Source: Anaerolinea thermophila
GTDB taxonomy: Bacteria; Chloroflexota; Anaerolineae; Anaerolineales; Villigracilaceae
DNA length: 64,000 nucleotides
Direction of reading: 5' to 3'
Assembly (NCBI GenBank): GCA_020722345.1
Contig: DYKZ01000001.1
Coordinates: forward strand, 18,108 to 82,107
This document shows, piece by piece, positions 1 to 21,676 of the stretch. Made by a program: the position numbers and the translations under genes. Positions within the stretch are counted from its first letter, which is position 1. Every line of letters begins with the position of its first letter. Under the pieces are notes generated by a model. That model was not told the origin of the DNA. It saw only the letters and a program-made list of their open reading frames with translations, and did no database searches.

Positions 1-324
1 CGAGTTCACTTTACCTGCGAGGCAGAAAAGCTGGACAGCATCGGTCGGGTAATTGACTTCAACGACATCAAGTCACGCCTGTGCATGTGGCTCGAAGACG
101 AGTGGGATCACAAGACGCTCATCTGGGAGAACGATCCTTGGGCAAAGGTTCTGCCCAGCATCGACCCCACGATTGTCATCGTGCCGTTCAACCCGACGGC
201 CGAGAACATCGCGCGATACCTCGTCGAAGTCGTGGGGCCGCAGCAGCTCCAGGGCACCGGCATCAAGCTCGTCCACTGCGATGTCGAAGAGACGCGCAAG
301 TGCTCCGCCTCTTTCCACGCATAA
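1..324 (+). CDS. queD: 6-carboxy-5,6,7,8-tetrahydropterin synthase (QueD), 5'-truncated by window edge
   Basis: Frame 1 is open from nt 1 to TAA 322-324. The translation ...[52 protein letters not shown] matches the C-terminal half of PTPS/QueD (IDFxxLK, DHxxL, NPTxENIA, ET). Confidence 0.8.
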
Positions 325-334
325 GGTGACCCAA

Positions 335-1231: not shown

Positions 1232-1247
1232 CCGCTAGTTCTGCTAC

Positions 1248-1278
1248 AATAACGGGACATTATCGATGTCCCGTTATT
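1248..1278 (+). promoter_or_regulatory. Perfect 13-bp inverted repeat (AATAACGGGACAT / ATGTCCCGTTATT, 5-nt loop) between folE and dpdA
   Basis: Read directly from the sequence. It sits just 5' of the GGAGG (1281-1285) and ATG 1290. No U-run follows. Confidence 0.4.
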
Positions 1279-1289
1279 ACGGAGGTCTC

Positions 1290-2210: not shown

Positions 2211-3163
2211 TGCTTAAAGAACTCAAATTCGTACAGGGCGCGGTGGCGAAGAAAGATTTCGTCCCCGCGATGACGCACTTTGCAATCGAAGACGGAACCG
2301 TGCGCTCGTATAACGGCACGCTGGCGCTGTGCAGCCCCATCCCGTTCGATATCAACTGCAAACCGAAAGCGGGCCCGCTGGTGCAAGCGATCAGCAATTG
2401 TGATGACACCGTCACGCTAAGCATGACGCCTGCGGGAAAGCTCAGAATTCAGAGCGGCAAGTTCAAGGCGTTCGTGGACTGCATCGAGGGTGAGACCGCT
2501 CACGTACTACCCGAGGGGCAGGAAGTCGATTTTGACGGCGAGCAGATTCTCAAGGCGTTCAAGACGCTGTCACCGTTCGTGGGCGATGACGCCTCGCGTC
2601 CGTGGACGAATGGTATTCTGCTCCGTGGGCAGTCGGCCTTCGCGACGAACAACGTGTGCCTCGTGGAGTATTGGGTCGGCGCGCAGATCCCATTCACCGC
2701 CAACATTCCGTTCCAAGCAATCCGCGAAATGCTCCGCATCAACGAAGCGCCCACGCATGCGCAGCTCACCGAAGGGAGCATCACCTTCCACTATACCGAC
2801 GGCCGCTGGATCCGCAGCCAGCTCTATAGCACCAGCTGGCCTGACCTGTCCCGCGTGCTGGACCGTGAGTGCGCACCTGTGGCCATCGACGAGCGTATTT
2901 TCGACGGTCTCGAGGTGATCAAGCCCTTTGCAGATAAGCTGGGCCGGGTGTTCTTCCACGGGGAAGCGGTCAAGACCCACATGGAAGAGGGCATCGGTGC
3001 TTCGTACGATATGCCCGGGTTTCAGGTTGAAGGCATCTATCAGATTGAGATGCTCAAGCTGCTGAAAGGTGTGTGTCACAAGATCGACTTCGCTGCGTAC
3101 CCGAACCCCTGCATCTTCTTCGGGGATCGCCTGCGGGGTGCAATCATAGGCATGCGCCTGTAA
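2210..3163 (+). CDS. DNA polymerase sliding clamp (beta-clamp-like)
   Basis: 317 aa. The N-terminus MLKELKFVQGAVAKKDFVPAMTHFAIEDGTV..GTLAL has the pattern of beta-clamp N-termini. The start overlaps the dpdA stop (TGATG) and the gene directly precedes a polymerase. Confidence 0.55.
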   Translation: MLKELKFVQGAVAKKDFVPAMTHFAIEDGTVRSYNGTLALCSPIPFDINCKPKAGPLVQAISNCDDTVTLSMTPAGKLRIQSGKFKAFVDCIEGETAHVLPEGQEVDFDGEQILKAFKTLSPFVGDDASRPWTNGILLRGQSAFATNNVCLVEYWVGAQIPFTANIPFQAIREMLRINEAPTHAQLTEGSITFHYTDGRWIRSQLYSTSWPDLSRVLDRECAPVAIDERIFDGLEVIKPFADKLGRVFFHGEAVKTHMEEGIGASYDMPGFQVEGIYQIEMLKLLKGVCHKIDFAAYPNPCIFFGDRLRGAIIGMRL

Positions 3164-3217
3164 GCTATACACCACAGCGCCACGGCCCGCTTAATGGCCT
3201 TTATTTGAGGAAAGTCA

Positions 3218-5428
3218 ATGCGTTCAGATGCTCTTGGTCTGTTCTGGGAAGACAGACCGCCACCGCCCAAAGAGAAGGCCGAAAAGGCAAAGCGGACCCC
3301 GCCGGACCCTGTATGGCTCCGCCCTGACTATCTGCCAGGGCTAGAAGAAGCGCTGCGCATGCCCATCGGGGTGATGACGCAGGCGGAGATGGTGCAGGCT
3401 GCAATGGCACGCGACCGCATGCTGTTCGACATCGAGTGTTATGAGAACTACTTCCTGGCATCGTTCCGCTCGCTGACGACCGGCAAGGTCGCATTCTTCG
3501 AGATGTACGAGGAACACCCACTCGACATCAACACGCTGGGATGGGCCTTGCAGAACTTCCTGACCGTTGGGTTCAACTCGCTCTCGTACGACTTGCCAAT
3601 CACCTATCTTGCACTCGCCGGCAAGCCTATGTCATTGCTGAAGCATGCAACGAACCAGATCGTTCTGGAGGGTTGGCGAGGGCAAGACGTGCTGAAACAG
3701 TACAAGGTGAAGGCGCTGAAGGTTGACCACATCGACCTGATCGAAGTCGCTCCGCTACGCGCCAGCCTGAAGATCTACGGCGGTAGGCTGCACGTTCCGC
3801 GTATGCAGGATCTGCCGTTCCACCCTGACACTATTCTGACACCCGAACAGCGTGCGATCGTTCGCTGGTACAACCTCAACAGCGACTTGACGAGCACAGG
3901 GTTCCTCCATGAGTGCCTACGCGAGCACCTGGACCTCCGTACTACTCTCTCGAACGAGATCGGGGTGGACCTGCGTAGCAAGTCAGACGCACAGATCGCT
4001 GAAGCGGTGATTGCGGAGGAATACCTGCGCCGCACGGGTAAGCGCCCGGAGAAGCCCATCATTGAGGTGGGCACGATGTACCGCTACCGCGTGCCCCAAT
4101 TCATCAAGTACCAGTCCGAACTCCTCAATTGGGCGCTCGGTGTGGTAGCGAACGCCAACTTCATCGTTGACGACACGGGATCCATCGGGATGCCGGAAGA
4201 GATCAAGGCGCTAAAGTTGGATATCAACGGGTCGGTGTACCGCATGGGCATCGGCGGTCTACACTCAAGCGAAAGCACCGCAGCGCACGTCAGCGACGAC
4301 CAGTACCTCCTGATCGACAAAGACGTGACATCGTACTACCCGTTCATCATCTTGAACCTCGGTCTGTACCCGCATCACCTGGGCCCGGTGTTTCTGCACA
4401 TCTATAAGAACATCGTTGACCGGCGCATTGCAGCCAAGGCGCGCGGGGACAAGGTGACCGCGGACTCCCTCAAGATCACGATCAACGGGTCGTTCGGCAA
4501 GCTGGGCAGCAAGTATTCGATCCTGTACTCGCCTGACCTGCTGATTCAGGTGACAGTGACGGGTCAGCTGAGCCTGCTGATGTTGATTGAGCGCCTGGAG
4601 ATAGCCGGCATCCATGTGGTCAGCGCCAACACCGACGGCATAGTGATCAAGTGCCCGCGCAACATGCAAGGCGTGATGGATGGCATCGTGGCGCAATGGG
4701 AAAAGGACACGGGCTTCCAGACTGAAGAGTCCCGTTACCTCGCTCTGTACAGTCGCGACGTGAATAACTACATCGCAGTCAAGCAGAAGCAAGATAAGGA
4801 GACTAAGGCCTGGCTGAACGAACCTGACGGAACGAAGTGCAAAGGCGCCTATGCCAACCCGTGGGCCAGCAAGAAGAACATGGCCGAACGGTTGCACAAG
4901 AACCCGACGAATACGATCTGCGTCGAGGCTGTGGAGGCGCTACTAACGAAGGGCGTGCCGATCACCACAACGATTCGCCAGTGCCGTGACATCACGAAGT
5001 TCGTTAGCGTGCGCAGCGTCAAGGGTGGCGCGGTGAAGGTGTGGGAGCGTATTCCTCCGCCCGCGCACACATCACAAGAAGAACTTCTGAGGATGGCTGG
5101 GTTCGTTCCGTTTTCTTCCGGTAGCTGGGTCAGGGGTGAAGACAAGCTGGGGCGCACTGCCATGGCGACCGATCGTGCGTATAAGGTAGCCTGGGACGAA
5201 CTGTCGAAGCCTGGGCTAACAGAGTTCCTGGGCAAGTCGATCCGCTGGTATTACGCGCAGGGCGTAGCGGGTGAGATCGTGTACGCGACGAACGGGAACA
5301 AGGTGCCCCGATCTGAGGGAGCGAAGCCCCTCATGGACCTGCCGAGTGAATTCCCGACCGACGTAGATTTCGAGTGGTACGAAGAGGAAGCTCGAAAGAT
5401 CCTCGAGGTGATAGGGTACGCCACATGA
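3218..5428 (+). CDS. Family B DNA polymerase with 3'-5' exonuclease domain
   Basis: Exo I FDIECYE, Exo II FNSLSYDLP, Exo III WYNLNSDL. Pol motif A DKDVTSYYPFII, motif B KITINGSFGKLG, motif C SANTDGIV. RBS GAGGAAA precedes the ATG. Confidence 0.85.
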   Translation: MRSDALGLFWEDRPPPPKEKAEKAKRTPPDPVWLRPDYLPGLEEALRMPIGVMTQAEMVQAAMARDRMLFDIECYENYFLASFRSLTTGKVAFFEMYEEHPLDINTLGWALQNFLTVGFNSLSYDLPITYLALAGKPMSLLKHATNQIVLEGWRGQDVLKQYKVKALKVDHIDLIEVAPLRASLKIYGGRLHVPRMQDLPFHPDTILTPEQRAIVRWYNLNSDLTSTGFLHECLREHLDLRTTLSNEIGVDLRSKSDAQIAEAVIAEEYLRRTGKRPEKPIIEVGTMYRYRVPQFIKYQSELLNWALGVVANANFIVDDTGSIGMPEEIKALKLDINGSVYRMGIGGLHSSESTAAHVSDDQYLLIDKDVTSYYPFIILNLGLYPHHLGPVFLHIYKNIVDRRIAAKARGDKVTADSLKITINGSFGKLGSKYSILYSPDLLIQVTVTGQLSLLMLIERLEIAGIHVVSANTDGIVIKCPRNMQGVMDGIVAQWEKDTGFQTEESRYLALYSRDVNNYIAVKQKQDKETKAWLNEPDGTKCKGAYANPWASKKNMAERLHKNPTNTICVEAVEALLTKGVPITTTIRQCRDITKFVSVRSVKGGAVKVWERIPPPAHTSQEELLRMAGFVPFSSGSWVRGEDKLGRTAMATDRAYKVAWDELSKPGLTEFLGKSIRWYYAQGVAGEIVYATNGNKVPRSEGAKPLMDLPSEFPTDVDFEWYEEEARKILEVIGYAT

Positions 5429-5507
5429 ACTGTTACACCTTCTGCGGTAGCACAAAGGTTGTGGGCAGTTTTGTGGAAAACGGGCTTGATAGGCTGCGCC
5501 TGACAGG

Positions 5508-5552
5508 ACGGGCTTGTCGATTGAAAGAAATATCGGCAAGCCCGTTTTTATT
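5508..5552 (+). terminator. Rho-independent terminator after the polB gene
   Basis: Stem ACGGGCTTG (5508-5516) pairs with CAAGCCCGT (5537-5545), with an inner TCGAT/ATCG extension, followed by TTTTTATT. An extra direct copy of ACGGGCTTG lies at 5480-5488. Confidence 0.6.
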
Positions 5553-5618
5553 GCTTGCATCTGCTCATGAGGTGTCCTACAGTTACACCATGCCGCAAGT
5601 CGATATTGGAGAGTTGAT

Positions 5619-5897
5619 ATGGAAGAGACCCTCATCGAGGAGATCGTGCTGCGTTACCGCCGTCTGGTTCCGATGACCACGCATGGCGAGCACCTGTTGT
5701 TCATGAAGGTGAAACACGCGCACATGATGCACCCTCTTCAGCTGGACGCACTGCTGATCGCTACCGACGAGGATCTCGTTCATGACGTGGAAGGCATTGC
5801 GCAACACTTCGACACCGCTGCCGGCGTTTACCGCGAGCTGTTTTGGCCGCGCTACGCGGCGGCGTGCGGTGGCCAGTGCAACCATACCGGCCACTAA
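5619..5897 (+). CDS. hypothetical protein
   Basis: 92-aa ORF with GGAG 7 nt upstream of the ATG. No recognisable motif. Confidence 0.45.
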   Translation: MEETLIEEIVLRYRRLVPMTTHGEHLLFMKVKHAHMMHPLQLDALLIATDEDLVHDVEGIAQHFDTAAGVYRELFWPRYAAACGGQCNHTGH

Positions 5898-5958
5898 CCG
5901 ATCGCGGCCTGTACCCCCGAAAGCGGGGCCCGCAGCATAGTTCAATAAGGAGAGCGCA

Positions 5959-6183
5959 ATGCGCAGACGTACCAAAGACAATTTCTATCGAATCTGCGCC
6001 GGTTTGGCCTTTGTTCTTGTGGCCGGTGTCGTCGGGTCCATGGACTACGAAGACGCAGTCCTGGAGGAGCGTGCATACTGCAAGAACGTCCACGAGGGCA
6101 TCTGGCCCGACTATGATGAAATCTATGCGGAGGTGTGCTATGAAGGCCAGCGTCGCGCTGATCTCGCTACTGCTGAGCGCTAA
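5959..6183 (+). CDS. hypothetical membrane protein
   Basis: AAGGAG RBS. One hydrophobic helix, ICAGLAFVLVAGVVG. Confidence 0.45.
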   Translation: MRRRTKDNFYRICAGLAFVLVAGVVGSMDYEDAVLEERAYCKNVHEGIWPDYDEIYAEVCYEGQRRADLATAER

Positions 6184-6620: not shown

Positions 6621-6989
6621 CTAGAGCGCCACTCCCGCTGACCAGCCGCCTGCCTTGAACGCGGAGAGCTTCTCCTCGTCCTCGATGTATGCGACCCAGC
6701 CAATGCGCGGTTGCGCGAATACCCAGGAGCCGGCCGGCGTGCCCGGAACCCATACGGCGACGTTTCCGTCGTACCCCAGCCAGGCATCGGTGGCGCCGGT
6801 CGGGACAATGTAGGTGTCGCCTTCTGCTGGTGCGCCTGGAGGTGCGGTGAGGTCGCGGTCCTTCACGGACAGGTGAAAGCCGAAGCGTCCCATGCGCAGC
6901 AGGTTCGCGTCCATGCCGGCGTTCCAGCCGTTCTCACCATACGTCCAGCCCCAGGCAAAGCCCGAGCGCGGTTCAGTCTTCGATGCCAT
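6621..6989 (-). CDS. DUF2793-like tail fibre-associated protein
   Basis: GDTYIVPTGATDAWLGYDGNVAVWVPG..WVFAQPRIGWVAYIEDE matches the DUF2793 pattern as I recall it (GDrYiv..atGaW.G....a.w..g.W.f..P..GW). It is the last gene of the tail module. Confidence 0.6.
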   Translation of the reverse strand: MASKTEPRSGFAWGWTYGENGWNAGMDANLLRMGRFGFHLSVKDRDLTAPPGAPAEGDTYIVPTGATDAWLGYDGNVAVWVPGTPAGSWVFAQPRIGWVAYIEDEEKLSAFKAGGWSAGVAL

Positions 6990-7001
6990 GTTGTTCTCCT
7001 G

Positions 7002-8237
7002 TTACGGGTTGCGCGGAACGAGGCCCGGGATCACCTCGAACTCGATGTTTGGGTCAAGATAAACGATGCGGTCAGGAAGCTGAAACCAGTCATAAGGCGA
7101 CGTGATCTTGCGCCGCGGCTTCAGCGCGCCGGTCGTGGCGTTGTCCAGGAGCTTCTGCTTGACCGCCTGAACCTGCGCCCGGGTCGTCAGCCTCCGGTAG
7201 CCCTGGAGCATACAGGCTACCACGCCGGCGACTATGGGCGTTGCGTAGCTCGTCCCGTTGCCGAGCCGGTAGCCGCCCCCCTCGGACGCCCTCTGAGCCG
7301 ATAGCGTGCGCTGGGCCGGGGCGAGAATGTCCACGTCAGTCAGGCTCCAGTTCGTCCCGTAGCCCGATTCAGGCGTGTAGTACGGGGTGTCATCCGGGGC
7401 GAGCCCGCCGCACACAATGGTGTCCGGGTCCGACTCCGCCGGGCGGATCACGGAGGCCGTGATGTCGGTCGCCTCGTTGCCTGCGGGATAGCAGCAGACG
7501 ATCCCCGCGTTGATCATGTCCGTCACCGCGGCGTCGATGGTACTGGAGAAGTCGGACCAGCTCATGAACATCACCGCCGGGCGGTCATCGTCCGCTTGGG
7601 TGTTGTACTGGGACAAGATCGCGCCCATGGCGGCGACCGCGTTGGTCACGCTTGCTCCCGAGTGGGCGTCGTAGAACTTCATGGAATGGCCGCGGGCTTC
7701 GCGGGCGATGCCGACCGTGCGCCCGAGGGCGAGCCCGAGGCAGTGCGAACCGTGACCGGAGGCGTCCAGCTCCGCTTTCGCGTAGTTCGAACGGTAGTGC
7801 CAATATTGGTTGACCCGGCCCCCGAACTCCGGGTGCGTGTACTCCACCCCGGAGTCGATGATAAAGATGTCCACCCCCGCTCCGGTCCGCTTCGCGTTGA
7901 ACGTCGAAGTGCGCGGGAACGGCAGCGCCCCGCCTCCGGGCGTCCACCACGGGTTCCTCCGGCGGATAACCCGGGCGGCGGACCAGCCGCCGGTTCCCCG
8001 CATGTTCTGCTCCAATACCAATTCCTGGAAGCAGGGCGTCAGTTCCTCGTCACCGTCATCGACGGCCTGGACCGAGGGGTGGGCGCGGAACGGAAATGCC
8101 GCCGCGGCCACTCCAGGCACGCGGAGATGGCGAGGAAGGCCCGGGAAGGGCTCAATGGTCAGGCCCGCGGCCCGGACCTCCTCCGCGAAGGCCGCGGCGA
8201 GGTCGGGCGACTTCAGCACAACGATAGTCTCAGCCAT
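7002..8237 (-). CDS. Subtilisin-family (peptidase S8) serine protease with N-terminal propeptide-like domain
   Basis: Catalytic triad contexts: IIDSGVEYTHPEF (Asp), SGHGSHCLG (His), GNGTSYATPIVAGVVA (Ser). About 110 aa lie N-terminal to the Asp box. Confidence 0.85.
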   Translation of the reverse strand: MAETIVVLKSPDLAAAFAEEVRAAGLTIEPFPGLPRHLRVPGVAAAAFPFRAHPSVQAVDDGDEELTPCFQELVLEQNMRGTGGWSAARVIRRRNPWWTPGGGALPFPRTSTFNAKRTGAGVDIFIIDSGVEYTHPEFGGRVNQYWHYRSNYAKAELDASGHGSHCLGLALGRTVGIAREARGHSMKFYDAHSGASVTNAVAAMGAILSQYNTQADDDRPAVMFMSWSDFSSTIDAAVTDMINAGIVCCYPAGNEATDITASVIRPAESDPDTIVCGGLAPDDTPYYTPESGYGTNWSLTDVDILAPAQRTLSAQRASEGGGYRLGNGTSYATPIVAGVVACMLQGYRRLTTRAQVQAVKQKLLDNATTGALKPRRKITSPYDWFQLPDRIVYLDPNIEFEVIPGLVPRNP

Positions 8238-10162: not shown

Positions 10163-13045
10163 TCAAACTCCTCCGCCGACCGCGTAGGCTTCCACGTCTA
10201 CCGGCGCGAACAGGTTGCCCGTCTTAGCCGCCATGTTAGAAGGCGGCGCCAAGAGCGGCAGCTTCAGCTCCGCTGGCCTCCAGGACTTGAGCCCATCCCG
10301 AACCGCCCGGACCTGGAGCACGAGAATGGCGGAACCGTCCGGGATAGTGTGTTCAAGCAGGTCAATCGTGTAGGTTTTCAACGCCCCGATGTCCTGCTGG
10401 AAGAACTGAACCTGGTTGCCGTCCTCCGTCTCGCCCAACATCGTGATCTCATAGGTGGTTCCAGCCTCCGGGACCACCTCCCCGTCCGTCCAGGCGAGCG
10501 GAACACCGCCCGTCTCCTGGAGCCGGTTGCGGCCCACCCACGTCGCCACCGCCGGGTAAGCCACGTTGTCGTTGGGGTCCACGTCCAGCTCGCCGTTGAT
10601 GCGGAGGTTCGCCGGGCGGTAGGGCCGGGCCGCGCGTCCCTCTATCGTCAGGGACATTTCCGGGGCCGCGGCGATGTCCAGCTGGCCGGAGCCCGTGACG
10701 GTCGCCAGCTTGACACGGACCTGCTCGCTGTTGACATACTCCGTGGGGGAGCCCGCCGGGAAGGCGTCCCAGAAGTAGATGACGGACCCCGCGCCGTGCT
10801 CCTTGGGCACCGTGTCATAGATCGCGCGGCGGACCGTCACGGTGTTGAGCACCGGGTCCAGCGCCTCGATCCACACCAGCTCCTCCCCGATCTGGGCCCA
10901 TGACGGGACCTCGACCAGATCAAGGTCCACGCCGCCTTGTATGGAGAACTCAGTGTTGAATCGCCCAACGGGTGCGGACAGCTTCGCGTAGGGGCAGAAG
11001 TCCAGCACCCCGGCTTCCTCGAAGGTTTCGCCCAGGCCCGCCGCCGTGTAGAGACGGGCGTTGAGGCTCGCCACGTTCGGACGGCCCGCCGCCGCCCCCA
11101 CGTAGCCCAGATCAGGCTCCGCGGCCAGGGTCTGGTCAGTCTGCGCCTGCCCCTGCTGTTGAACCAGCTCGATGTACGGGATTTCGTACACGATCTGATC
11201 AGCCACCGGGGTCGGGCCGCTGTTCGGGTCCTCCCATTGCGGCGGGTCGGGCGTGACCAGCGCCGTCTCCGGGAGGTCGAACACGTCCTCAGTACAGGTG
11301 ATTTTGATGCGGTTCGTCCGTCCGTCGCCATAGGCGATGCCGTTGACGCGCATCACCACCTCGCTGAGGTTGTAGTCCGCCCAGGACAGCTTGAACACGT
11401 CGCCAATCGTCAGGTCCTTCGCCGTCCGGTCCGCGTAGATGGTACACGAGGCCCGCTGCGAGGAGAGGGCCTTGAGGTCACGTTGCGCGACCCGGGAGGC
11501 AATGGCGGGGTCCACAAATCCCGGGTACTGGATGGTGGTCCCGATAGTGACGCCCTGCATCTGCTGAAGCGCGATGTCCTGGGCGGACACGCTCGCGTCC
11601 CTCCCGGTATTCACGTTCCAGTAGTTGACCGTGACCGCGTTCGTCAGCTCCCCGAAGGCCGGGCGCGTGAAGTTCTCGATCTTGTCAATATTGTCTTCGT
11701 TCAGGTGAAGCAGGTTGTCCTTGTTGTATCCTCCGCGGATCAGCTTCAGAGTGAACAGGCCGGTCTTGCGGTCCACGTACAGGGCCGCGTCGATATGCTT
11801 CACAATCTCCCCGATGAAGTCCTCAATCGGGGTCTGGCGGTCCCAGAGGATGCTGATGCCCATCCGCTCGTTGTAGAGCTGGTCCGCCGCGGCCATGAAG
11901 GACTGGTCATCCACCTCCGCGTCCGAGTAGCCCATGCCCCAATCGGGGTCGGTCAGGCACTCCCGGATGATGTGGGCCGGGTTCATGGCGGAGCTGTCGC
12001 CCATCACCGCGAAGAACACCGCGTTGTACAGGGCGTTGGACTCCGCGGAGTCAACCACCGGGATACCGTCCTGCGGCGTGTTCTCGACCAACGCGATGTA
12101 GGAGGTGTTTGAGAGGTCGATGCTGATGCCGTACACGTCCACGGGGCTCTGCGCCCAGACGCCCTCCTTGCGGATCATCGGACCCGCGACGGCCAGCGCC
12201 TGATCGACCGTGGTGGCGGGTTCCGGGAGGCCGTCCGTGATGAAGAACATCGCCCGGCGGCGACCGTCCGCGGAGCCGGGCTGAAACCAGTTGACCGCGT
12301 TGCCGTAGGGCTGGCTGAAGTCGGTCCCTCCCGAGGCGGACAAGCCGTCCACAAAGTTCTTGAGGTCCTGTATGTCCGCGGAGGAGACGTTGAAGCGGCT
12401 CATCTGGGTCGTGGACGTGCTCCAGCCGCAGACAGCGATGTCCACCTGGACCTTGGAGTCAATCCGCAGTTGGTCGATAGCGTCCAGCACCGCCTTCATC
12501 TGGGTCTTGGCGAGCTGGAGACGGGTCAAGCCGCCCGACACCACCGTGTCCATCGACCCGGACGTGTCCAGGGCGAAGAAGAACATTTGGCGCTGCTTGA
12601 AGTTCGAGGCGACCTTGATTTCAGCCTTCGGGTAGTACCACTGAGCCGCGCCGCTCTGGCGCATATGAATGCGCTGGACCCTGAATGCCCACTTCTTCAG
12701 GTACGGGTTCAGCCCGAGGTACACCTGACGGAGGACCACGCCGACAACGCCCCGGTAGGCCGGAATCAGGGACCCGAGCTTGCTGAGCAGGTAGCTGTTC
12801 TGCCCCTGGGCCGGTCCGCCGGGCTCGAAGTCCACCGTGCCCTGGATACCGCCCTCCCGGCTTTCGCCGCCGAACAGGTCCGGGTTGTCCACGTAGATGG
12901 AGCCGCTGTTGCGGTCGCCCAACCAGGCGTCCTTCCCGTCCACTCGAATGCGCAGGATGCGATCCACCGGACCGTGGCACAGGATCATGTGCATGCCCAA
13001 GTAGTATTTGTATCCAACGGTGACTTTCTTACTGCTTCCGCCCAC
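10163..13045 (-). CDS. tail tip / host-specificity protein (GTA g15-like body) with inserted vWA domain
   Basis: GTG start with GGAGG upstream. The N-terminus GGSSKKVTVGYKYYLGMHMILCHGPV matches the conserved GGGKG..YsY..alCeGpi region of GTA-type host-specificity proteins. vWA MIDAS DTSGSMD...GGTDF...FFITDGLPEP lies near aa 160-340. Confidence 0.75.
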   Translation of the reverse strand: MGGSSKKVTVGYKYYLGMHMILCHGPVDRILRIRVDGKDAWLGDRNSGSIYVDNPDLFGGESREGGIQGTVDFEPGGPAQGQNSYLLSKLGSLIPAYRGVVGVVLRQVYLGLNPYLKKWAFRVQRIHMRQSGAAQWYYPKAEIKVASNFKQRQMFFFALDTSGSMDTVVSGGLTRLQLAKTQMKAVLDAIDQLRIDSKVQVDIAVCGWSTSTTQMSRFNVSSADIQDLKNFVDGLSASGGTDFSQPYGNAVNWFQPGSADGRRRAMFFITDGLPEPATTVDQALAVAGPMIRKEGVWAQSPVDVYGISIDLSNTSYIALVENTPQDGIPVVDSAESNALYNAVFFAVMGDSSAMNPAHIIRECLTDPDWGMGYSDAEVDDQSFMAAADQLYNERMGISILWDRQTPIEDFIGEIVKHIDAALYVDRKTGLFTLKLIRGGYNKDNLLHLNEDNIDKIENFTRPAFGELTNAVTVNYWNVNTGRDASVSAQDIALQQMQGVTIGTTIQYPGFVDPAIASRVAQRDLKALSSQRASCTIYADRTAKDLTIGDVFKLSWADYNLSEVVMRVNGIAYGDGRTNRIKITCTEDVFDLPETALVTPDPPQWEDPNSGPTPVADQIVYEIPYIELVQQQGQAQTDQTLAAEPDLGYVGAAAGRPNVASLNARLYTAAGLGETFEEAGVLDFCPYAKLSAPVGRFNTEFSIQGGVDLDLVEVPSWAQIGEELVWIEALDPVLNTVTVRRAIYDTVPKEHGAGSVIYFWDAFPAGSPTEYVNSEQVRVKLATVTGSGQLDIAAAPEMSLTIEGRAARPYRPANLRINGELDVDPNDNVAYPAVATWVGRNRLQETGGVPLAWTDGEVVPEAGTTYEITMLGETEDGNQVQFFQQDIGALKTYTIDLLEHTIPDGSAILVLQVRAVRDGLKSWRPAELKLPLLAPPSNMAAKTGNLFAPVDVEAYAVGGGV

Positions 13046-13235
13046 GGGCCGCCTCCACTACTTGGAGGGCCATCGGATCGCCGGTGGCCACGAGTTTGTC
13101 CGCGGCGATCCCGTTCGCCAGGAACTCCGACCAGTTGAGCCCGTGTCGCTCGAAGAAGGCCCGCGCCCCGCGGGAGCACATCTTGACGGCTCGCACGTCA
13201 TCCATTCGGATGATCAGTTGGCTATCGTCCGTCAT
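13029..13235 (-). CDS. hypothetical protein lying between the two host-specificity gene pieces
   Basis: 68 aa. ATGA overlap with the upstream gene and 17-nt overlap with the downstream GTG. The sequence MTDDSQLIIRMDDVRAVKMCSRGARAFFERHGLNW is not assignable. Confidence 0.5.
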   Translation of the reverse strand: MTDDSQLIIRMDDVRAVKMCSRGARAFFERHGLNWSEFLANGIAADKLVATGDPMALQVVEAARGRKQ

Positions 13236-13465
13236 TTCTTGCCGCCCTTCTTCTTGATCGCCACGGTGCGCAAGTCACCGAACCACACCACGTTCGGCCC
13301 TTCAATGTCCCGGGTCCCGAACAGCACCGGGATTTCCCGGCCCTCCTCCGCGGTCGGCACCTTGAAGTCGCCCAGGCCCGCGGGCTTCGCGTTCTGCGGC
13401 TTGGGCGTCAGCGAGTAGCTGACCACCAGCGCGACCACGAAGACCGCGATGTACCACCAAACCAT
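13232..13465 (-). CDS. N-terminal fragment-like piece of host-specificity protein (TM helix plus IPxxFGTxxxxGxxxW box)
   Basis: ATG 13465 has GGAGG upstream. The product MVWWYIAVFVVALVVSYSL...EIPVLFGTRDIEGPNVVWFGDLRTV..KKKGGKK resembles the extreme N-terminus of GTA g15-type proteins. Confidence 0.5.
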   Translation of the reverse strand: MVWWYIAVFVVALVVSYSLTPKPQNAKPAGLGDFKVPTAEEGREIPVLFGTRDIEGPNVVWFGDLRTVAIKKKGGKK

Positions 13466-13478
13466 GGTCTGGCCTCCT

Positions 13479-14924
13479 CTACACGATGGATGAACCGTCG
13501 AACGGATTGCGAATGGGTATCCAGTCAAATCCGCCGTAGTTCATCAAGTTATTGAAACGCCCGTGGCAGGTCCCCCGGGTCCGGTCGCACCCCGGGAACA
13601 TGCGCACTGCCGCGCCGCCGTAATACTGGCCATAGGATAGCCCGTAGCCGTCAAGCGCCAAAGCCTTCGCCATCGACTCGAACGGACGGAGGAGGGTCAG
13701 CTGGTTCCCCACGTGGTTCGTGATGAAGCGCAGCGTCCCGTCCGGGCCTTCGAGGATGCCCGTGGTGAAGTAGCCGTTGGGGTAGGCCGCGGCCTCCGGG
13801 ACCGTGACCACGAGGCCGTTGATGGCGGTCGGGACGCCCTTGACGGCCCAGGCTTCCTTACTCACCCCGCAACCGCGGGAGTACAGCATGTGGCGGCAGC
13901 TCCGCTGATAGCGGGCGCGGAGCCCGGGGCGGCGCAGCGACGTGAACACGGACTCAAAGTTGAGGATGATTTCGCTCATGGTGGGCTTGACGCCCGACAA
14001 CCGGCCCTTCCAGACGATGCTGATTTCATCGTCCTCGTCCCGCTCGAAGATCGTCAGTGTGACCAGCGTCTCTACGTGGTCGTGGAGCCAGCGTTGTCCC
14101 ATGGAGTTGCCCAGGTCCACCTTGACTTCGATGTTCGCCCGGCTCAGTTCGTTCTTCGTCTCCGCCTCGCTGCGACCGATAGGCACGGGCGTGTACGTCT
14201 CGCCCATGTAGTCCACCGGCTCGTCCCCGCTCGTGAAGGTCCAGACCTCCGACTCAGTAGGCCCCGCGCTCAGGATGGCGTTGTACAAGGCGTCCGAGTT
14301 CGTGGAGGAGAGGACCGGCACGCCGTCCCGGGGCGTGTTGTCGAGCAGCCCAAGATAGGTCGTGTCATAATGGTCCACGGACATACAATAGATGTCCACC
14401 TCATTCCCGGAGGCGGGCGAGAAGGCCCCGGTGCGGGTGATCATGTCCGCCGCGAGGCTCGCCGCGTTCGCGGCAGAGCTGGCGGGCTCCGGCACCCCGT
14501 CCGTGATGAAGAACAGGGACTGGCGGAAGTCCGCCGGGGTCGGGGTCAGGAAGTAGTTGCGCGCCGCGGCCACGGGCGCGTCATAGGGCGTCCCGCCCTC
14601 AGCGACCAGCCCATCAATCCACGCCTTCAGGTCCGCGATGGAGGAGCTGGAGACGTTCCGGCGGACAATCGTCACGGTCCCGGTCCCGGAGAAGGCCGCC
14701 ATGCCGATATGGACAGCCACGTTCTTCTCAATCCGCTTCCGGTCGATTTCGTCCAGGACCCGCTTCAGCTGATCCTTGGCGACCTGGAACCGGGTCATCC
14801 CGGGCGACCCCTGTTCATTCATGGACCCGGACTTGTCCACGATGAAGTAGAAGTTTTGGTTGCCGTCGAAGGGGTCCTTGAGCCCCTGCTCGACAAATCT
14901 GTACATCTCAACTTTTGTACTCAT
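13479..14924 (-). CDS. tail hub protein (DUF2163 / BR0599-like, GTA g13-like) with N-terminal vWA domain
   Basis: The C-terminus FPGCDRTRGTCHGRFNNLMNYGGFDWIP is the BR0599 signature. The N-terminus carries vWA MIDAS DKSGSMN...GGTPYD...FFITDGVPEP. Confidence 0.7.
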   Translation of the reverse strand: MSTKVEMYRFVEQGLKDPFDGNQNFYFIVDKSGSMNEQGSPGMTRFQVAKDQLKRVLDEIDRKRIEKNVAVHIGMAAFSGTGTVTIVRRNVSSSSIADLKAWIDGLVAEGGTPYDAPVAAARNYFLTPTPADFRQSLFFITDGVPEPASSAANAASLAADMITRTGAFSPASGNEVDIYCMSVDHYDTTYLGLLDNTPRDGVPVLSSTNSDALYNAILSAGPTESEVWTFTSGDEPVDYMGETYTPVPIGRSEAETKNELSRANIEVKVDLGNSMGQRWLHDHVETLVTLTIFERDEDDEISIVWKGRLSGVKPTMSEIILNFESVFTSLRRPGLRARYQRSCRHMLYSRGCGVSKEAWAVKGVPTAINGLVVTVPEAAAYPNGYFTTGILEGPDGTLRFITNHVGNQLTLLRPFESMAKALALDGYGLSYGQYYGGAAVRMFPGCDRTRGTCHGRFNNLMNYGGFDWIPIRNPFDGSSIV

Positions 14925-16090
14925 GGTTGAATCTCCAGGGTGTTCACCGTACAGCGCAGAACGCTATTGCCCAACCAGTTCAACTCTACTCGATCAGTGT
15001 CCAACCGGCGAAGCCCGAGGAAGCTGACCGCGGCGATGGATTGGGCCGGGACGTTCAGAGCCGTGTCCAGGGTCAGTTCAACGGTCGAAGCATTCCCTGG
15101 GAGCGGCACCGCCGCCGTCACCGTCCGGCAGAGCCAGGCCCCGGCGAGGGTCTGGACTGCGACATGGTTGCGCAGCGGGAGCCAATCCAGGAGCCCTTCC
15201 CGGGCTTCCACCAAGAGTTTGTCCGCGACGGTCCCGGTGGACTTGTGTCGCAGATCGTTCTCAAAGGTCGGGCTCCAGTAGGGCCGGAACCGGCCCGCGC
15301 GCCGCATAAGCCAGTTGCGGAAAGCCCGGACCTCCGCCGGGCCGTCGCACACCACGTGTCGCGGTCGCAGGTCCCTATTGTAGCGCCAAGGCGTCCGCCG
15401 CGCCACTTTGCCGAGTTCATAGTCAACGCGGTCAACGCGGGTGGTAATTTCCTGCCCGTAGGTGCTCGCGGACATCATGCCTGGCTCTAGGTACAGGTCA
15501 CGTCCTAGAAACTGCGCCGGGGCATCCTCCGCCAGCGCCTCGATGTCCTCGACCTCGAACCGGACGGACGTTTCAGCCTCATAGCCGTTTGAACTGCGTT
15601 CGGGCGAGCCGTCGATGTGCCCGACCCGCACCGGCACCAGGAAGGCGGCGGAGAAGGCCCCGGGGTAGTCCGTCAGCGTGATTTCGCCCGGGGCCACGGC
15701 CTCAATCTCCACCAGCTCCCAGCGGTCATAGCTCTGCCAGAGGAGGGCGAGCCCGCCCGCCCGGAGGTCGTACAGCTCCGTGTTACACTGGATCGTGATG
15801 GTGTTGAGAAGGATGCCGCCGATGGGCTGGGCCTCGCACCAGAGCGGGATTGCCCAGCGCCGCCCCAGCGCCCCGTATTGGGCGAGGTAGGCACGAGGCT
15901 TGACCGCCGCCGTCTCCGGGAGGAGGTAGGTGAGAGTCATCCGCGGATGATTCCGCAGCTGAATCGCCTTCTCCGTCCCGTTGAAGGAGGTCATGAGGTC
16001 CGTTTTCCACTCCAGCAGCTCCCGAACCGGCACGCGGGCCGGGAGCGGGAGCAGCGCGAGCTCACCGAGGCTTGTTTGTACTTTCGCCAT
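14921..16090 (-). CDS. distal tail protein (GTA g12-like by position)
   Basis: 389 aa, lying directly between the tape measure and the hub, with ATGA coupling at its 3' end. The assignment is positional only. Confidence 0.5.
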   Translation of the reverse strand: MAKVQTSLGELALLPLPARVPVRELLEWKTDLMTSFNGTEKAIQLRNHPRMTLTYLLPETAAVKPRAYLAQYGALGRRWAIPLWCEAQPIGGILLNTITIQCNTELYDLRAGGLALLWQSYDRWELVEIEAVAPGEITLTDYPGAFSAAFLVPVRVGHIDGSPERSSNGYEAETSVRFEVEDIEALAEDAPAQFLGRDLYLEPGMMSASTYGQEITTRVDRVDYELGKVARRTPWRYNRDLRPRHVVCDGPAEVRAFRNWLMRRAGRFRPYWSPTFENDLRHKSTGTVADKLLVEAREGLLDWLPLRNHVAVQTLAGAWLCRTVTAAVPLPGNASTVELTLDTALNVPAQSIAAVSFLGLRRLDTDRVELNWLGNSVLRCTVNTLEIQP

Positions 16091-16091
16091 A

Positions 16092-18911
16092 TCAGCCGCT
16101 CACGATAGCGCGGGCGGTGTCGGAGTTCCGCCGCATCACGTTCATGATCACCTCCTCGCCTTCCGGGGTGCTCAGGTAGTCGCCCAGCATAGCCGGGTCC
16201 ACCACGTTGATGATCCGGGCGTTGACCTGCGGCGGGGCCGGGGGGCTTCCCTCATAGGGGTCGCCCTTGCGGACCTGTTCGGGCCGCGCCACGCTCACCT
16301 TCTCGCCCGGGGTCGCCCGGAAGGCAACCATTTGGGAGTCAGGCCCGCCGGAGCCGCCCACCACGAAGCTGCCGCCGGTCTGGAAGCCCAGGTTGGTGCT
16401 CAGGATGCTCGCCACGTTCGCCGCCGCCGCAACGCCCGCCGCCGCGGCGAGGGCGTAGTTGGCCGGAGGCGGAGCGGAGGCGAGGGCCTTCTGGACCGCC
16501 AGCACGCCGTCGATGGTCGCCTGAGTGACCGCCGCCGCCTTACCAATCGCCGCCAGCTCCCGGTTCTTCGAGCGGGACAGCCCGGCGAGGTTGCCGAAGA
16601 ACTGCTGCGCCCCGGACAACTGCTTGGCGTACAGGTCCGCGTTCGCCCGGGCCTTCAGTTGGACCGCCGTTTGCTCACTGATCAGGTCCGCCTGCCGCAG
16701 GGCGTCGATTTGGGCCAGGGTCTGCTCATAGTTCGTGAGCATCGCCTGCTGGGCTTCAATCGTCCCCTCCAGCAGCGACTGGTTCTGCTCGACAAGGTAG
16801 GCGTTGGCCTGCTCGCGCGTGATCGACCCGTCCGCAATCAGGGAGTTGATTGCGGCGAGCTGTTCCATGAAGGTCTTTTGGTTGCCCTGGACCGCCTGGA
16901 GGACCTGGTTGCGCTGCTCCATGATCCGGGTATCGGCCTGGAGCAAGGTCAGCCGCTCGCGGAGCTGCTGGAGTTCCTGCTCATTCAGGATGATGCCCTG
17001 CTGGAGGAGGTCCTGCTGAATCTGGCGCACCTGGTTCTCGATTTCACGCTGATCTGCGGTCATGCCCAGCAGCTCGCGCTCGCGGTCCAGCTCGCGGTTG
17101 ACGGCCCCCAGTGGGTCCATCGCGTCCTTGAGCTGCTCCCGCATCAGCCGGATCACCTCGTTCTTGCGCTCCGCGGTGATCAGTCCGGTCCGCTCAGCCT
17201 GTTCAAGGAGGCGGATGCCTTCCGCGTACTCCTGTTGGGCTTTCCACGCGCGGTCGTAGGAGCCAATGAGGCGGTCCAGCTCGTCCCGCAGCTTCTTGGC
17301 GACCTTTTCCGCCTCCGGGTTCGCGATCTGAGCCCGCGGACCCTTCTGGGTCAGGTCCGCCGCCGGACCGTTGCCCGCCGCCGCGCGCTCGCGCCCAATC
17401 TCCTGGGCGCGGGTCGTCAGCCGCTCCAGGAAGTCCTGAGCGTAGTTGGTGTTGCGGAAGCCTTCGCTGAAGGCGGCACCGATGTCCTGCCCGAGCTGAC
17501 GCGCGGCCCCTTCGTTCTCGTTGGTCAGCTGAAGGTCCAACGCGGCGATCTTGCCCAAGCCCACGAACTCCGTCACCGTGCTCAGGAGTTCGCCCGCGGC
17601 GTTCACGAAGCGGCCGATTTTGTCCAGGACCACGTTCAGCACCCGGGTCATCAGGTCCCCGAGGGCCGCGGGAAGGCCCTTGAACAGGGCGACCACGGCC
17701 ATGATCGCTCCGCGCCAAGCCCCGATGTATGTGTCCACGCCCTTCGCCACAAGGCGGAGGATGCCGATGATGCTGACATCGACCTCGCCCACCCAGTCCT
17801 GGATCAGCTGGATCAGCGGCCCGAAGGTGTCCTTGGCCCACTGCCAGATCGCCCCGAACACTGCCCCGACCGTCTCCCCGAGGACACGCATCATATCGCC
17901 CAGGGTCGTGACCTCGTCCGCCCCCAGGTTGATCTGGTCGCGGAACAAGGTCAGCGCGGTGATCGCGGAGGTGAGCCCCACGAGGAGGAAGCCGATTGGG
18001 TTGGTGGCGACAGCGGCATTCAGCGCTAGCACCGCGTTCCGGGCCAGGTTGATCGCCCTCGTGGCCCCGCCCACGAGGGCGAGCCCCGCCGCCGCGGACA
18101 CGGCGACCTTGGCGATGGTGTCCAGGTTCTCGCTCACGAACCGCAGCGCCCGGGAAATGGCCTCACTGGCCCCGGTTGCTTGGTCGAAGCGGCCCACCAG
18201 GTCAATGACGTTGTTCTTCAGGACCTGGAAGGACTGGCCGATGGTCGGAACCGCCTTGCCAAACCGCTCCTCCAGCTCGCCGCGGGCGTTCTGGAAGGCG
18301 TCGAAGATGATGTCAGCGGTGATCTTGCCGTCCTCGCCCATCTTGCGGAGCTGGCCGCGGGTGACGTTCAGCTGCTTGGCGATCACGTCTGCGACGGTCG
18401 GCAGCTGTTCCAGGACGCTGTTCAGCTCATCGCCGCGGAGGACGCCCGAGGCCATACCCTGGGCGAGCTGGATCATGCCCGCCTGGGCCTCCGTCGCGCT
18501 CGCGCCCGACAGGGCAATGGCCTGGTTCAGCGACTTCGTGAAGTCGATCAGCTCTTGCTGGCTCAGGCCCATGTCCTTCGCGCTGTTGGCCAATCGTCCA
18601 TACGTCTCCACCGTCCCCTCGAAGGACTGGCGGGTGCTGTTGGCTACGCCCAGCAGCTGCTGATAGACCGCGGTGAGGTTCTGGGCCTCCAGGCCGGTCG
18701 CCCGGAGTCGGTTCTGGAGGTTGGTGAAGGTGTCCAGAAGTCGGACCAGCTCGCCCGCGGTGATCGCGGCCCCGAGGGTCGCCAGGGCCTTCTTCAGGAA
18801 CTCCACCCCATCAGCGGACTTTCGAGCACCCCCGCCGATGTCCTCCAGGTTGCGCTTAACAACCCGGGAACCTCGCTCAGTGATGACTATGTCAATGCGT
18901 TCTTCGGCCAT
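16092..18911 (-). CDS. tail tape measure protein
   Basis: 939 aa and highly helical. The N-terminal tape-measure domain reads LQNRLRATGL..TYGRLANSAKDMGLSQQELIDFTKSLNQAIALSGAS..GMIQLAQGMASGVLRGDELNSVLEQLP. Confidence 0.9.
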   Translation of the reverse strand: MAEERIDIVITERGSRVVKRNLEDIGGGARKSADGVEFLKKALATLGAAITAGELVRLLDTFTNLQNRLRATGLEAQNLTAVYQQLLGVANSTRQSFEGTVETYGRLANSAKDMGLSQQELIDFTKSLNQAIALSGASATEAQAGMIQLAQGMASGVLRGDELNSVLEQLPTVADVIAKQLNVTRGQLRKMGEDGKITADIIFDAFQNARGELEERFGKAVPTIGQSFQVLKNNVIDLVGRFDQATGASEAISRALRFVSENLDTIAKVAVSAAAGLALVGGATRAINLARNAVLALNAAVATNPIGFLLVGLTSAITALTLFRDQINLGADEVTTLGDMMRVLGETVGAVFGAIWQWAKDTFGPLIQLIQDWVGEVDVSIIGILRLVAKGVDTYIGAWRGAIMAVVALFKGLPAALGDLMTRVLNVVLDKIGRFVNAAGELLSTVTEFVGLGKIAALDLQLTNENEGAARQLGQDIGAAFSEGFRNTNYAQDFLERLTTRAQEIGRERAAAGNGPAADLTQKGPRAQIANPEAEKVAKKLRDELDRLIGSYDRAWKAQQEYAEGIRLLEQAERTGLITAERKNEVIRLMREQLKDAMDPLGAVNRELDRERELLGMTADQREIENQVRQIQQDLLQQGIILNEQELQQLRERLTLLQADTRIMEQRNQVLQAVQGNQKTFMEQLAAINSLIADGSITREQANAYLVEQNQSLLEGTIEAQQAMLTNYEQTLAQIDALRQADLISEQTAVQLKARANADLYAKQLSGAQQFFGNLAGLSRSKNRELAAIGKAAAVTQATIDGVLAVQKALASAPPPANYALAAAAGVAAAANVASILSTNLGFQTGGSFVVGGSGGPDSQMVAFRATPGEKVSVARPEQVRKGDPYEGSPPAPPQVNARIINVVDPAMLGDYLSTPEGEEVIMNVMRRNSDTARAIVSG

Positions 18912-20149: not shown

Positions 20150-21676
20150 TTATACGTCAGCAGCGTTCGGAAGGTAAGGGAATTCATTGAACAAGAGGGT
20201 GTGCTTGTTCGAGCCTTCCGCCGCTTCGATGGACAGGGGCAGGGTGATGGGCTGGTCCTGCTCCACGTTCAGGCGACCGTCGCCCAACGCGATCAGCGGG
20301 ATGTCCCAGACCATGCCAGCGTTGTTCTTCACCAGGGCGAAGTCCAGCGCCACGTCCGAGTTGTTGCGCACCGCCTGAACCGCGGCGATGTCCGCGAAGT
20401 AGGCGGTGACCGAACCCGACACCGCGAAGGTGCCCGCGCTCACGTCGAAGGCCCCGAGGACAGCGACCGCCTTGTTGGGCGAGACGTTGTTGTTCACGGT
20501 CAGGGTCAGTTCCGTGAGGAATGCGAACAGCGGGTTGGGGTTCGCGTTCCCGGCGGTGACCAGGTGCATCTTGATCCGGCTGAAGTCCGAGGAGGTGTTG
20601 AAGGCGGGAGCCTCCACGAGGTCGGGACGGGTGCCCGACTTCACGCCCACGGAGCCGTCGCGCTGCTCGTTGTCCACCGCGATGAAACCCAGCTCCGCCG
20701 TGACCTTGTCGGCCTGACGGATTTGGAGGCTCATCTCATTCGGGACCGCGCCCACCAGGTACTCCGACATGGTGCCGTTGGCGTCCTGGCCCAGGGTACG
20801 CTCCAGCTGGTAGCTGCGGCGCTTGATCAGGTTCGCTGCGGCCTCGTTCTTGATGACGTTGCCGAAGAACAGGCGGAGGGTCTTGCCGGTTCCGGTTTCG
20901 GTCACCATCGTGGCTGCGGTCTTGTCCAGCTCGATGTAGGCGGCAGCGACCGCGCGGACGCGGGCGAAGCCGTTGTTGGCGGCGTTGGTGAACTTGGTCG
21001 CCGCCGCGTCCCCGCCGATGAACACCCACTCGCCCGGGATCAGGCCCAGGGTCGTCAGGTCCTTCGTGCCCGAGGCGCGAACCAGGCGCGGGTAGCTGCC
21101 CGACACGTCCACGTTGATCTCCGCGGAGCCGAACTGAAAACCAACCTTCTGGAGCTTGGCGTCAGCGCCCGGGGTTTCGTCCACGAGGCCGTCCCCCACC
21201 ACCACGGTTCCGGCGGTGGAGCTGGCGACCTGCTTCAGGCCGTTGTTCGCTGCTTGGGCGAAGCCCGAGGCCAGCACCAGATCGCCCGCGAGGAAGCCAG
21301 CGAGGCCCGAGGCCGCAGCATAGGTGTCGGTGGAGGCCACCACGCCGGTCAGGACCACCGCCGCGCCGTTCATCGGAGCCGTGGTCAGCTTCTCGCGGAT
21401 GTCCGCGAAGAAGAAGCCCTGCAGCAACCGGGTCAGGTTGGTCTGGGTGATGTCCTGGGCGAAACCGCCGGAGGCGTCCAGGTCAGTCGTCACGCCCTTC
21501 TTGCGCTGGCGAGACGGGTTGATGGGGTTCCGGGCGATGGTGCTGATTTGGCCACCAAAGTCGTTGTAGCTGTTCGGCTCCAGAGGATGCCAAACGGGCG
21601 AGCCCGGAAGGGTCTTGATGTCAGTTTCCTCAGCGTACCGGAGGCCGGTCACGTTGGAGTCGATTTTGTTGGCCAT
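20150..21676 (-). CDS. major tail protein (putative)
   Basis: 508 aa, lying immediately upstream of the chaperone pair. No sheath/tube gene pair is present, which implies a siphovirus-type tail. The call is based on position and size. Confidence 0.6.
   Translation of the reverse strand: MANKIDSNVTGLRYAEETDIKTLPGSPVWHPLEPNSYNDFGGQISTIARNPINPSRQRKKGVTTDLDASGGFAQDITQTNLTRLLQGFFFADIREKLTTAPMNGAAVVLTGVVASTDTYAAASGLAGFLAGDLVLASGFAQAANNGLKQVASSTAGTVVVGDGLVDETPGADAKLQKVGFQFGSAEINVDVSGSYPRLVRASGTKDLTTLGLIPGEWVFIGGDAAATKFTNAANNGFARVRAVAAAYIELDKTAATMVTETGTGKTLRLFFGNVIKNEAAANLIKRRSYQLERTLGQDANGTMSEYLVGAVPNEMSLQIRQADKVTAELGFIAVDNEQRDGSVGVKSGTRPDLVEAPAFNTSSDFSRIKMHLVTAGNANPNPLFAFLTELTLTVNNNVSPNKAVAVLGAFDVSAGTFAVSGSVTAYFADIAAVQAVRNNSDVALDFALVKNNAGMVWDIPLIALGDGRLNVEQDQPITLPLSIEAAEGSNKHTLLFNEFPYLPNAADV

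Follow-up and report, generated by a model that had tools for sequence, protein, structure and literature searches.

Adhesion modules spliced into the core proteins of siphophage tail tips are already known in principle, and binding has been shown for several of the carbohydrate-binding modules (CBMs) of the "evolved" Dit/Tal proteins (PMC7291167, PMC7533335). The solved tips of phages JBD30 and Chi (the latter, 8vjh; PMC11945409) each contain three copies of a hub protein of the lambda gpL type and three of a central tip protein of the lambda gpJ type, here called J. In JBD30, the upper baseplate protein, which is homologous to the hub, touches through its domain I the ring formed by the distal tail protein (Dit), and this protein and Dit carry the lateral, pilus-binding fibers. 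Here, we analyzed a stretch of 64,000 nucleotides (nt), referred to as the window (contig DYKZ01000001.1 of assembly GCA_020722345.1, Anaerolinea thermophila; positions 18,108 to 82,107), which encodes the tail tip of a siphophage of the lambda/gene transfer agent (GTA)/JBD30 type, kin to Pamexvirus and Mesyanzhinovviridae. At the DNA level, its relatives are Pseudomonas phage PaMx28 and phages of Xanthomonas, Stenotrophomonas, Variovorax, and Bordetella, with 67 to 70% identity. Both its hub and its J protein carry a von Willebrand A (VWA) domain, for which ligand binding is a prediction.

Two tail tip proteins carry paralogous VWA domains with an intact metal site

The first-pass annotation of this DNA had described paired VWA segments in a BR0599/DUF2163-type hub and in a host-specificity protein of the g15 type, and had proposed to align them with each other and with Pfam VWA. 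Both alignments were significant. BLASTP aligned residues 138 to 381 of J with residues 8 to 259 of the hub (101 identities over 254 positions, 40%; E = 2e-46), and the peptides and open reading frames (ORFs) described are present on the minus strand. In the Pfam search, VWA_2 scored 36.7 bits in J and 39.9 bits in the hub (cutoff, 27), and VWA (PF00092) scored 36.4 bits in the hub (cutoff, 23.8), all above the gathering thresholds. The identities given to the two host proteins held as well, since Pfam and the solved homologues of the gpL/g13 and gpJ/g15 types agree on them. The metal-ion-dependent adhesion site (MIDAS; DxSxS...T...D), reported as intact, could be traced in full, with all five residues located in both the hub and J (Table 1). 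These residues are kept in 33 of the 33 hub and J VWA domains compared, whose mutual identity is only 25 to 47%, which argues for selection acting on the metal site.

The predicted structures are consistent with this assignment. AlphaFold2 models, with a mean predicted local distance difference test score (pLDDT) of 75.6 for the hub and 80.2 for J, show the alternating strands and helices of the alpha/beta VWA fold, and Foldseek matched them with a probability of 1.00 to many VWA structures. Over most of the hub VWA, pLDDT values range from 86 to 96; in the J VWA, over which the alignment is shallow, they are about 87 to 94 in the first half and about 49 to 82 in the second, which is thus modeled with low confidence. 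The word-indexed homologue search, run with residues 1 to 420 of J, missed the closest homologues and yielded mainly insert-less J proteins. The nearest solved structure is the ligand-binding vWFA domain of LapA (9no5; sequence E values of 5e-9 and 7e-9; Foldseek TM score of 0.74), and the next Foldseek matches are the vWFA of AhLap (9das), the pilus-tip adhesin SpaC, integrin I domains, and anthrax-toxin receptors. A conserved DNTPxDG(V/I)P motif was considered as a special site and set aside, since it falls in the usual VWA beta6 region.

The VWA domains are inserted at defined positions

Homologues lacking the domains set their boundaries. In J, the Chi (8vjh) and JBD30 (8rk3) homologues align to residues 1 to 145 and resume at residues 347 to 352. 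J proteins of about 724 amino acids (aa) from Pseudomonas and Xanthomonas phages have the two flanks joined directly (KAEING followed at once by DMNPAH), and therefore the insert of J comprises residues 146 to 352. In the hub, the solved homologues align only to residues 226 to 480. Hubs without a VWA nevertheless conserve the first 14 residues and read MSTKVEMYRFVEQG directly followed by RTESEVWTF; therefore, the VWA is an insertion of residues 15 to 222 placed after the first beta-strand. As such, a plain N-terminal fusion of a VWA onto the hub was rejected.

Several details of the first-pass annotation can be refined accordingly. The J segment had been placed in the right region, at about residues 160 to 340, but the insert is slightly wider. 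The hub domain had been called N-terminal, and it does lie near the N terminus, although as a 208-aa insertion and not as an extension. The two genes had been called adjacent; they are neighbors, but not strictly, since two conserved tail tip genes (77 and 68 aa) stand between them. The remark that VWA domains lie outside the standard GTA-like tail blueprint was borne out, the RcGTA, Chi, and JBD30 reference tips being without them. Both proteins have the makeup of an "evolved" tip protein, that is, a discrete domain in a loop of a core tip protein for which insert-less homologues exist.

Distribution of the VWA subfamily

By tblastn, VWA matches were found in only 24 of 50,697 phage records, and 16 of these records contain the domain twice. 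When the hub VWA was compared with 1.84 billion representative proteins, 334 matches were obtained at E values up to 1e-3. The best 150 of them comprised 110 J-type proteins (VWA at about residues 146 to 350), 12 hub-type proteins, 12 Dit-type proteins, and 16 fragments or others, including one giant cellular adhesin with Big_9 and cadherin-like repeats. By this distribution, the subfamily is essentially a phage tail tip module, with J as its commonest seat. In RcSpartan-like phages, neither the hub nor J has the domain; the same VWA lies inside the Dit homologue, between Dit residues ~184 and ~211. Our locus survey covered 80 IMG/VR loci and GenBank relatives. Wherever the J gene of a locus with a hub VWA could be read (three clades), it had a VWA too, so that the hub VWA occurred only together with the J VWA, and the J VWA occurred alone in several lineages.

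The novelty implied by the first-pass annotation is smaller than it seemed. The architecture is already deposited in PaMx28 (gp30/gp33) and Bordetella phage MW2, the family phrog_15205 matches the hub over its full length, VWA included, and the VWA is present in more than 100 metagenomic protein clusters. The orthologues gp30/gp33 of PaMx28 are annotated as virion structural proteins. The proteins of the window are thus new members of an already deposited and clustered VWA architecture. A literature search turned up no paper that describes VWA domains in tail tips of this kind or studies their function. The present analysis adds the precise points of insertion, Dit as a third location, the hot spot at J residue ~146, and a clean natural presence/absence polymorphism.

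The insertion site of J harbors diverse modules

The segment between J residue ~147 and the conserved DMNPAH motif varies among relatives: it may be empty, be occupied by a VWA, or belong to one of at least 18 unrelated insert families, 119 to 252 aa in length. One of these families contains a Laminin_G_3/ConA-like lectin domain above the Pfam threshold, and another has a weak match to a beta-galactosidase all-beta domain (E = 0.064, below the Pfam cutoff); the Pfam search gave no match for the remaining families. The site is a hot spot at which modules are swapped.

In addition, five J homologues (P0124, P0129, P0133, P0134, and P0137), one of them from a 291-kb genome contig of Roseovarius autotrophicus, combine a VWA at the usual position with another insert, about 100 aa long, that follows J residue ~46, suggesting a further insertion socket in the N-terminal domain of J.

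An old duplication with recent modular changes

In a neighbor-joining tree of 39 VWA domains, the sequences grouped by host protein, with matching subclades within the hub and J groups. The clade of the window and PaMx28 hub domains splits off at 95% bootstrap, and the Dit-type clade has a support of 95%. The hub VWA of the window is 50% identical to that of the PaMx28 hub and 42% identical to the VWA of its own J; orthologous domains, at 50 to 94% identity, are closer than this in-genome paralogue. Since the domains cluster by host protein and orthologues are closer than the paralogue, the hub/J duplication is old and the copies have codiverged. For the same reasons, a recent duplication or gene conversion within the genome was rejected. 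Between hub and J, VWA identity is 41 to 47% in the clade of the window versus 25 to 29% in the PaMx28 clade.

Close relatives differ in the presence of the hub copy. In locus L005, the DNA flanking the position of the hub VWA is 95% identical to the window on one side and 93% on the other, and what is missing is exactly the 621-nt VWA segment, which has a GGGGC microhomology at both edges. Locus L003 encodes a 273-aa hub without VWA together with a J VWA 94% identical to that of the window, and it keeps all five downstream tail genes. Because near-identical relatives differing by a clean in-frame indel keep all of the neighboring tail genes, the hub copy is dispensable.

Other loci were found to be mosaics. 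In L006 (IMGVR_UViG_3300025872_000067), the hub VWA, the J N terminus, and the J VWA are 93 to 97% identical to those of the window (the two VWA domains, 94 to 97%), versus 83% for the hub core and 76% for the J core, a pattern that indicates recombination with breakpoints near the module borders. Locus L007 shows the reverse of this pattern, and in other relatives the VWA domains diverge faster than the cores. In L016 (6989 to 8448), the VWA region is identical to that of L012 and the hub frame is split into ORFs of 416 and 112 aa, which reflects either an assembly frameshift or a hub pseudogene.

Putative role as accessory adhesins

The homologous tip structures allow a possible mode of action to be outlined. 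By homology, six VWA domains would be displayed outside the tip cone of each virion. Given the contact that the upper baseplate protein of JBD30 makes with the Dit ring through its domain I, the hub VWA would sit at the upper rim of the cone, where the VWA that other phages carry in Dit would also be located. Each domain would hold a divalent cation, the free coordination position of which would be filled by a carboxylate or phosphate of a host ligand. As accessory adhesins, the modules would then increase adsorption or determine host range, and they would be exchangeable cassettes and not load-bearing parts of the assembly. On balance, we give about half of our confidence to this reading, in which the VWA domains, six per virion, are accessory, exchangeable, cation-dependent host-adhesion modules and not assembly elements.

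The first-pass annotation had offered both the binding of a host surface ligand and a role in tip assembly. The former is favored and the latter disfavored, as the hub VWA can be lost with all neighboring tail genes kept, and as the J site may hold unrelated modules or none. Across the related loci, we looked for a fiber or other downstream tail gene that covaries with the presence of VWA, and none was found: PaMx28 has both VWA domains yet is without the 306-, 118-, 206-, and 411-aa downstream proteins, and L019 has a homologue of the 118-aa protein and no VWA. Taken together with the loss in L003, the retention of the MIDAS, and the adhesin-type nearest relatives, this favors accessory adhesion over assembly. 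For the binding of a host receptor by the modules, these nearest relatives and the lectin-type insert that occurs at the J site in other phages offer indirect support only.

Several points weigh against the adhesin interpretation. The exposed position, the metal binding, the existence and nature of a ligand, and the effect on adsorption are predictions for every member of the family, and the position of the VWA on the assembled tip is extrapolated from homologous structures. Type IV pili are the reported or bioinformatically predicted receptor of several related phages (PMC9206674, PMC11946847), and the tblastn matches of the VWA do not include Pamexvirus AXL1, which uses pili (PMC9206674). 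Therefore, a general role of the VWA as the pilus binder of the family is unlikely, and a plausible target would be a putative cell-surface ligand met after pilus retraction. Among the alternative inserts of the J site, a lectin family can be assigned to only one, the others being unannotated. Finally, a conserved MIDAS would fit equally well with a partner within the virion, an acidic residue of one of its other proteins.

The domains could accordingly be docking or assembly sites, their MIDAS ions gripping an acidic residue of another virion component, such as the side fibers or the Dit ring. In that case, they would serve to keep accessory proteins attached to the baseplate and would not contact the host. 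MIDAS-mediated protein-protein contact is the classical function of VWA domains, as in integrin I domains. Moreover, the homologous upper baseplate protein and Dit form the attachment site of the pilus-binding fibers in JBD30, and the VWA domains occur in exactly the three proteins that build this region (Dit, hub, and J). Nevertheless, we regard docking as unlikely, given that no downstream tail gene covaries with the VWA, as the cases of PaMx28 and L019 illustrate, that L003 retains all five downstream genes at high similarity in spite of lacking the hub VWA, and that the J site, in phages sharing this core, is either empty or filled by any of many unrelated modules.

An extended form of the adhesin interpretation, which we consider distinctly unlikely, is that the VWA is a mobile adhesin cassette. 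It would have moved by illegitimate recombination at short microhomologies into Dit, hub, and J, and it would be gained, lost, or swapped among near-identical phages. In this scenario, the hub and J copies would form a two-tier, cation-dependent receptor-capture ring for a new receptor class, such as acid groups of lipopolysaccharide or exopolysaccharide bridged by Mg2+ or Ca2+.

A further possibility concerns a contact between the domains themselves. The hub VWA might bind the J VWA, or a neighboring subunit, as a metal-dependent latch that stabilizes the closed cone and is released upon receptor binding or a change in surface cations. That the hub VWA has only ever been seen alongside the J VWA (three clades), that the paralogues codiverge, and that their identity is higher in the clade of the window (41 to 47%) than in that of PaMx28 (25 to 29%) would fit such a latch. 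However, a single duplication in an ancestor with a J VWA accounts for the co-occurrence by descent, most often the VWA is present in J only (110 of the best 150 clusters), close relatives have cleanly lost the hub copy, and tips without VWA, such as those of Chi and JBD30, open and close normally (PMC11445458), all of which makes the latch very improbable. It is equally improbable that the domains are mostly neutral passengers, decorations that lack a specific ligand and persist through linkage since, even though the hub copy is dispensable and the J site tolerates many different inserts or none, the five MIDAS residues are strictly kept at 25 to 47% identity and the module is retained at the same site in more than 100 protein clusters and recruited into three different proteins, which argues for selection on a metal-site function.

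Organization of the tail tip locus

The genes of the tail tip block and the positions of both VWA modules are listed in Table 1.

Table 1. Features of the tail tip block in the window and the evidence for each
Feature	Position	Strand	Evidence or remarks
Tape measure protein, 939 aa, first gene of the tail tip block	16092..18911	-	Pfam TMP_3, E = 6.7e-64
Distal tail protein (Dit, RcGTA g12-like), 389 aa, no insert here	14921..16090	-	phrog_1082; homologue of the Dit proteins found in relatives
Hub or "upper baseplate" protein (lambda gpL, RcGTA g13, JBD30 gp50, Chi gp27 type), 481 aa, VWA insert	13479..14924	-	PF09931 and PF09356
Hub VWA module, aa 15-222, 208 aa	14259..14882	-	Pfam VWA_2 and VWA; boundaries set by VWA-less homologues
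Hub MIDAS (D30/S32/S34, T112, D142)	DKSGS 14823-14837; T112 14589-14591; D142 14499-14501		
Tail tip protein, 77 aa, hydrophobic N-terminal stretch resembling a transmembrane segment	13232..13465	-	phrog_1180, E = 2.9e-37
Tail assembly protein or chaperone, 68 aa, 17-nt overlap with the J start	13029..13235	-	phrog_1196, E = 3.8e-30
Central tail tip protein J (lambda gpJ, RcGTA g15, JBD30 gp53, Chi BH2P type), 960 aa, VWA insert	10163..13045	-	Pfam Phage-tail_3
J VWA module, aa 146-352, 207 aa	11990..12610	-	Pfam VWA_2; segment absent from insert-less J homologues
J MIDAS (D160/S162/S164, T241, D271)	DTSGS 12554-12568; T241 12323-12325; D271 12233-12235		

In the hub, the two Pfam families were detected at E = 2.6e-11 (PF09931) and E = 1.4e-11 (PF09356). 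Residues 226 to 480 matched the PDB entries 8vjh_D (E = 3.3e-24), 8rk3_g (E = 2.7e-17), and 6tba_7A (E = 4.6e-6), and in Foldseek the core matched JBD30 gp50 and Chi gp27 (E = 4.9e-17). Four cysteines of the BR0599 half, Cys343, Cys352, Cys446, and Cys453, are invariant in 40 homologues. They represent the conserved metal-cluster site, an equivalent four-Cys metal or Fe-S site having been described for JBD30 gp50, lambda gpL, and RcGTA g13. For J, Phage-tail_3 (PF13550) was found at E = 4.4e-10, the PDB matches were 8vjh_A (E = 1.9e-98) and 8rk3_o (E = 9.9e-82), and Foldseek returned 8rk3_b (E = 4.6e-62), the core matching JBD30 gp53, Chi BH2P, lambda gpJ, and T5 pb3.

An NlpC/P60 peptidase resembling g14, which stands between hub and J in the RcGTA arrangement, was considered and rejected for this position, as the two small genes occupy it. 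The 77-aa protein is found in every related locus except two short fragments, and the phrog_1196 gene between it and J is kept in nearly all of them. The 77-aa protein matches positions 1 to 72 of the J family phrog_1101, the match of J itself beginning at position 76; therefore, some members of phrog_1101 appear to be fusions of the small protein with J.

Two proteins encoded downstream of the tail genes, at 6621 to 8237 on the minus strand, are kept in L003, L006, and L007: one of 411 aa that includes a subtilase (Peptidase_S8) domain, and one of 122 aa assigned to DUF2793. The tail tube protein (20150 to 21676, minus strand) is 508 aa long, with the 266-position Phage_tube_2 profile stretched over residues 8 to 485. 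The close relative L003 has a 312-aa tail tube only distantly related to it; two tail tube types circulate in phages with near-identical tail tips. Positions 1 to 6000 of the window have a lower G+C content (57 to 59% versus about 65%) and plus-strand genes. The first of these (53 to 1231, plus strand) encodes a GTP cyclohydrolase I with an N-terminal extension of about 210 aa and may be part of a 7-deazaguanine DNA-modification module. The DNA of the related phage AXL1 is restriction resistant (PMC9206674).

Implications

If the VWA domains are cation-dependent adhesins, they would be a new class of module among siphophage tail tip insertions, which so far are mostly carbohydrate-binding beta-sandwiches of phages with Gram-positive hosts. 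The lambda/GTA/JBD30-type tip would then have two or three precise sockets for exchange, after hub strand 1, after J residue ~145, and within Dit, and the natural variants with and without the hub domain, whose flanks are 93 to 95% identical, would already provide the material for an experiment on how such modules contribute to adsorption and host range, in phages that infect Pseudomonas, Stenotrophomonas, Xanthomonas, and Bordetella. Should the mobile capture ring exist, host range would be tunable by plugging modules into defined sockets. As assembly parts or neutral decorations, the domains would amount to a refinement of annotation only.

Comparison with known systems

The closest counterparts are PaMx28 (gp30/gp33) and the Bordetella phages CN1, MW2, FP1, and LK3 (Vojvodinavirus). 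These share with the window the order of tape measure protein, Dit, hub with VWA, two small genes, and J with VWA, and they carry the domains at the same two sites. The J protein of MW2 is annotated as "von Willebrand factor type A," and gp30 of PaMx28 is the top structural match in BFVD. However, their VWA domains are only 35 to 54% identical to those of the window, and the downstream fiber genes differ. JBD30 (8rk3; gp50 and gp53, baseplate hub) and Chi (8vjh; gp27 BH1P, and BH2P) have cores homologous to both proteins, the four-Cys hub site, and the same trimeric cone blueprint, and a more distant likeness extends to RcGTA g13/g15, lambda gpL/gpJ, and T5 pb3. At the two insertion sites, the homologues of JBD30, Chi, RcGTA, lambda, and T5 contain neither a VWA nor another insert, their sequences running straight across.

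Outside the phages, integrin I domains and the Gram-positive pilus-tip adhesins SpaC and PitA share the VWA fold with a DxSxS...T...D MIDAS, through which they capture ligands in a cation-dependent manner. Nevertheless, their identity to the VWA domains of the window is only 9 to 17%, their host scaffolds are different, and the open/closed allostery finds no support here. The closest solved kin by both sequence and fold are the vWFA domains of RTX biofilm adhesins (LapA of P. fluorescens, 9no5; AhLap of A. hydrophila, 9das; PMC12077191). These bud from a split host domain with their N and C termini adjacent, and the AhLap vWFA binds diatom cells (PMC12077191). Their identity to the domains studied here is about 23%, and AhLap vWFA has an extra 9-kDa insert that the VWA domains of the window do not have. 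The hub and J do not belong to the LapA-type RTX adhesins, since the VWA is accompanied only by phage tail domains in the Pfam search, and RTX repeats, extender domains, and a type I secretion signal are all absent. The likeness to these adhesins does not extend beyond the VWA module.

The "evolved" Dit/Tal proteins of lactococcal and streptococcal siphophages (PMC7291167, PMC7533335) follow the same principle, in which a self-folding adhesion module sits in a loop of a core tip protein and is exchangeable and present or absent among kin. In contrast to these, the modules described here reside in gpL- and gpJ-like proteins of phages with Gram-negative hosts, and they are VWA domains with a MIDAS instead of beta-sandwich CBMs.

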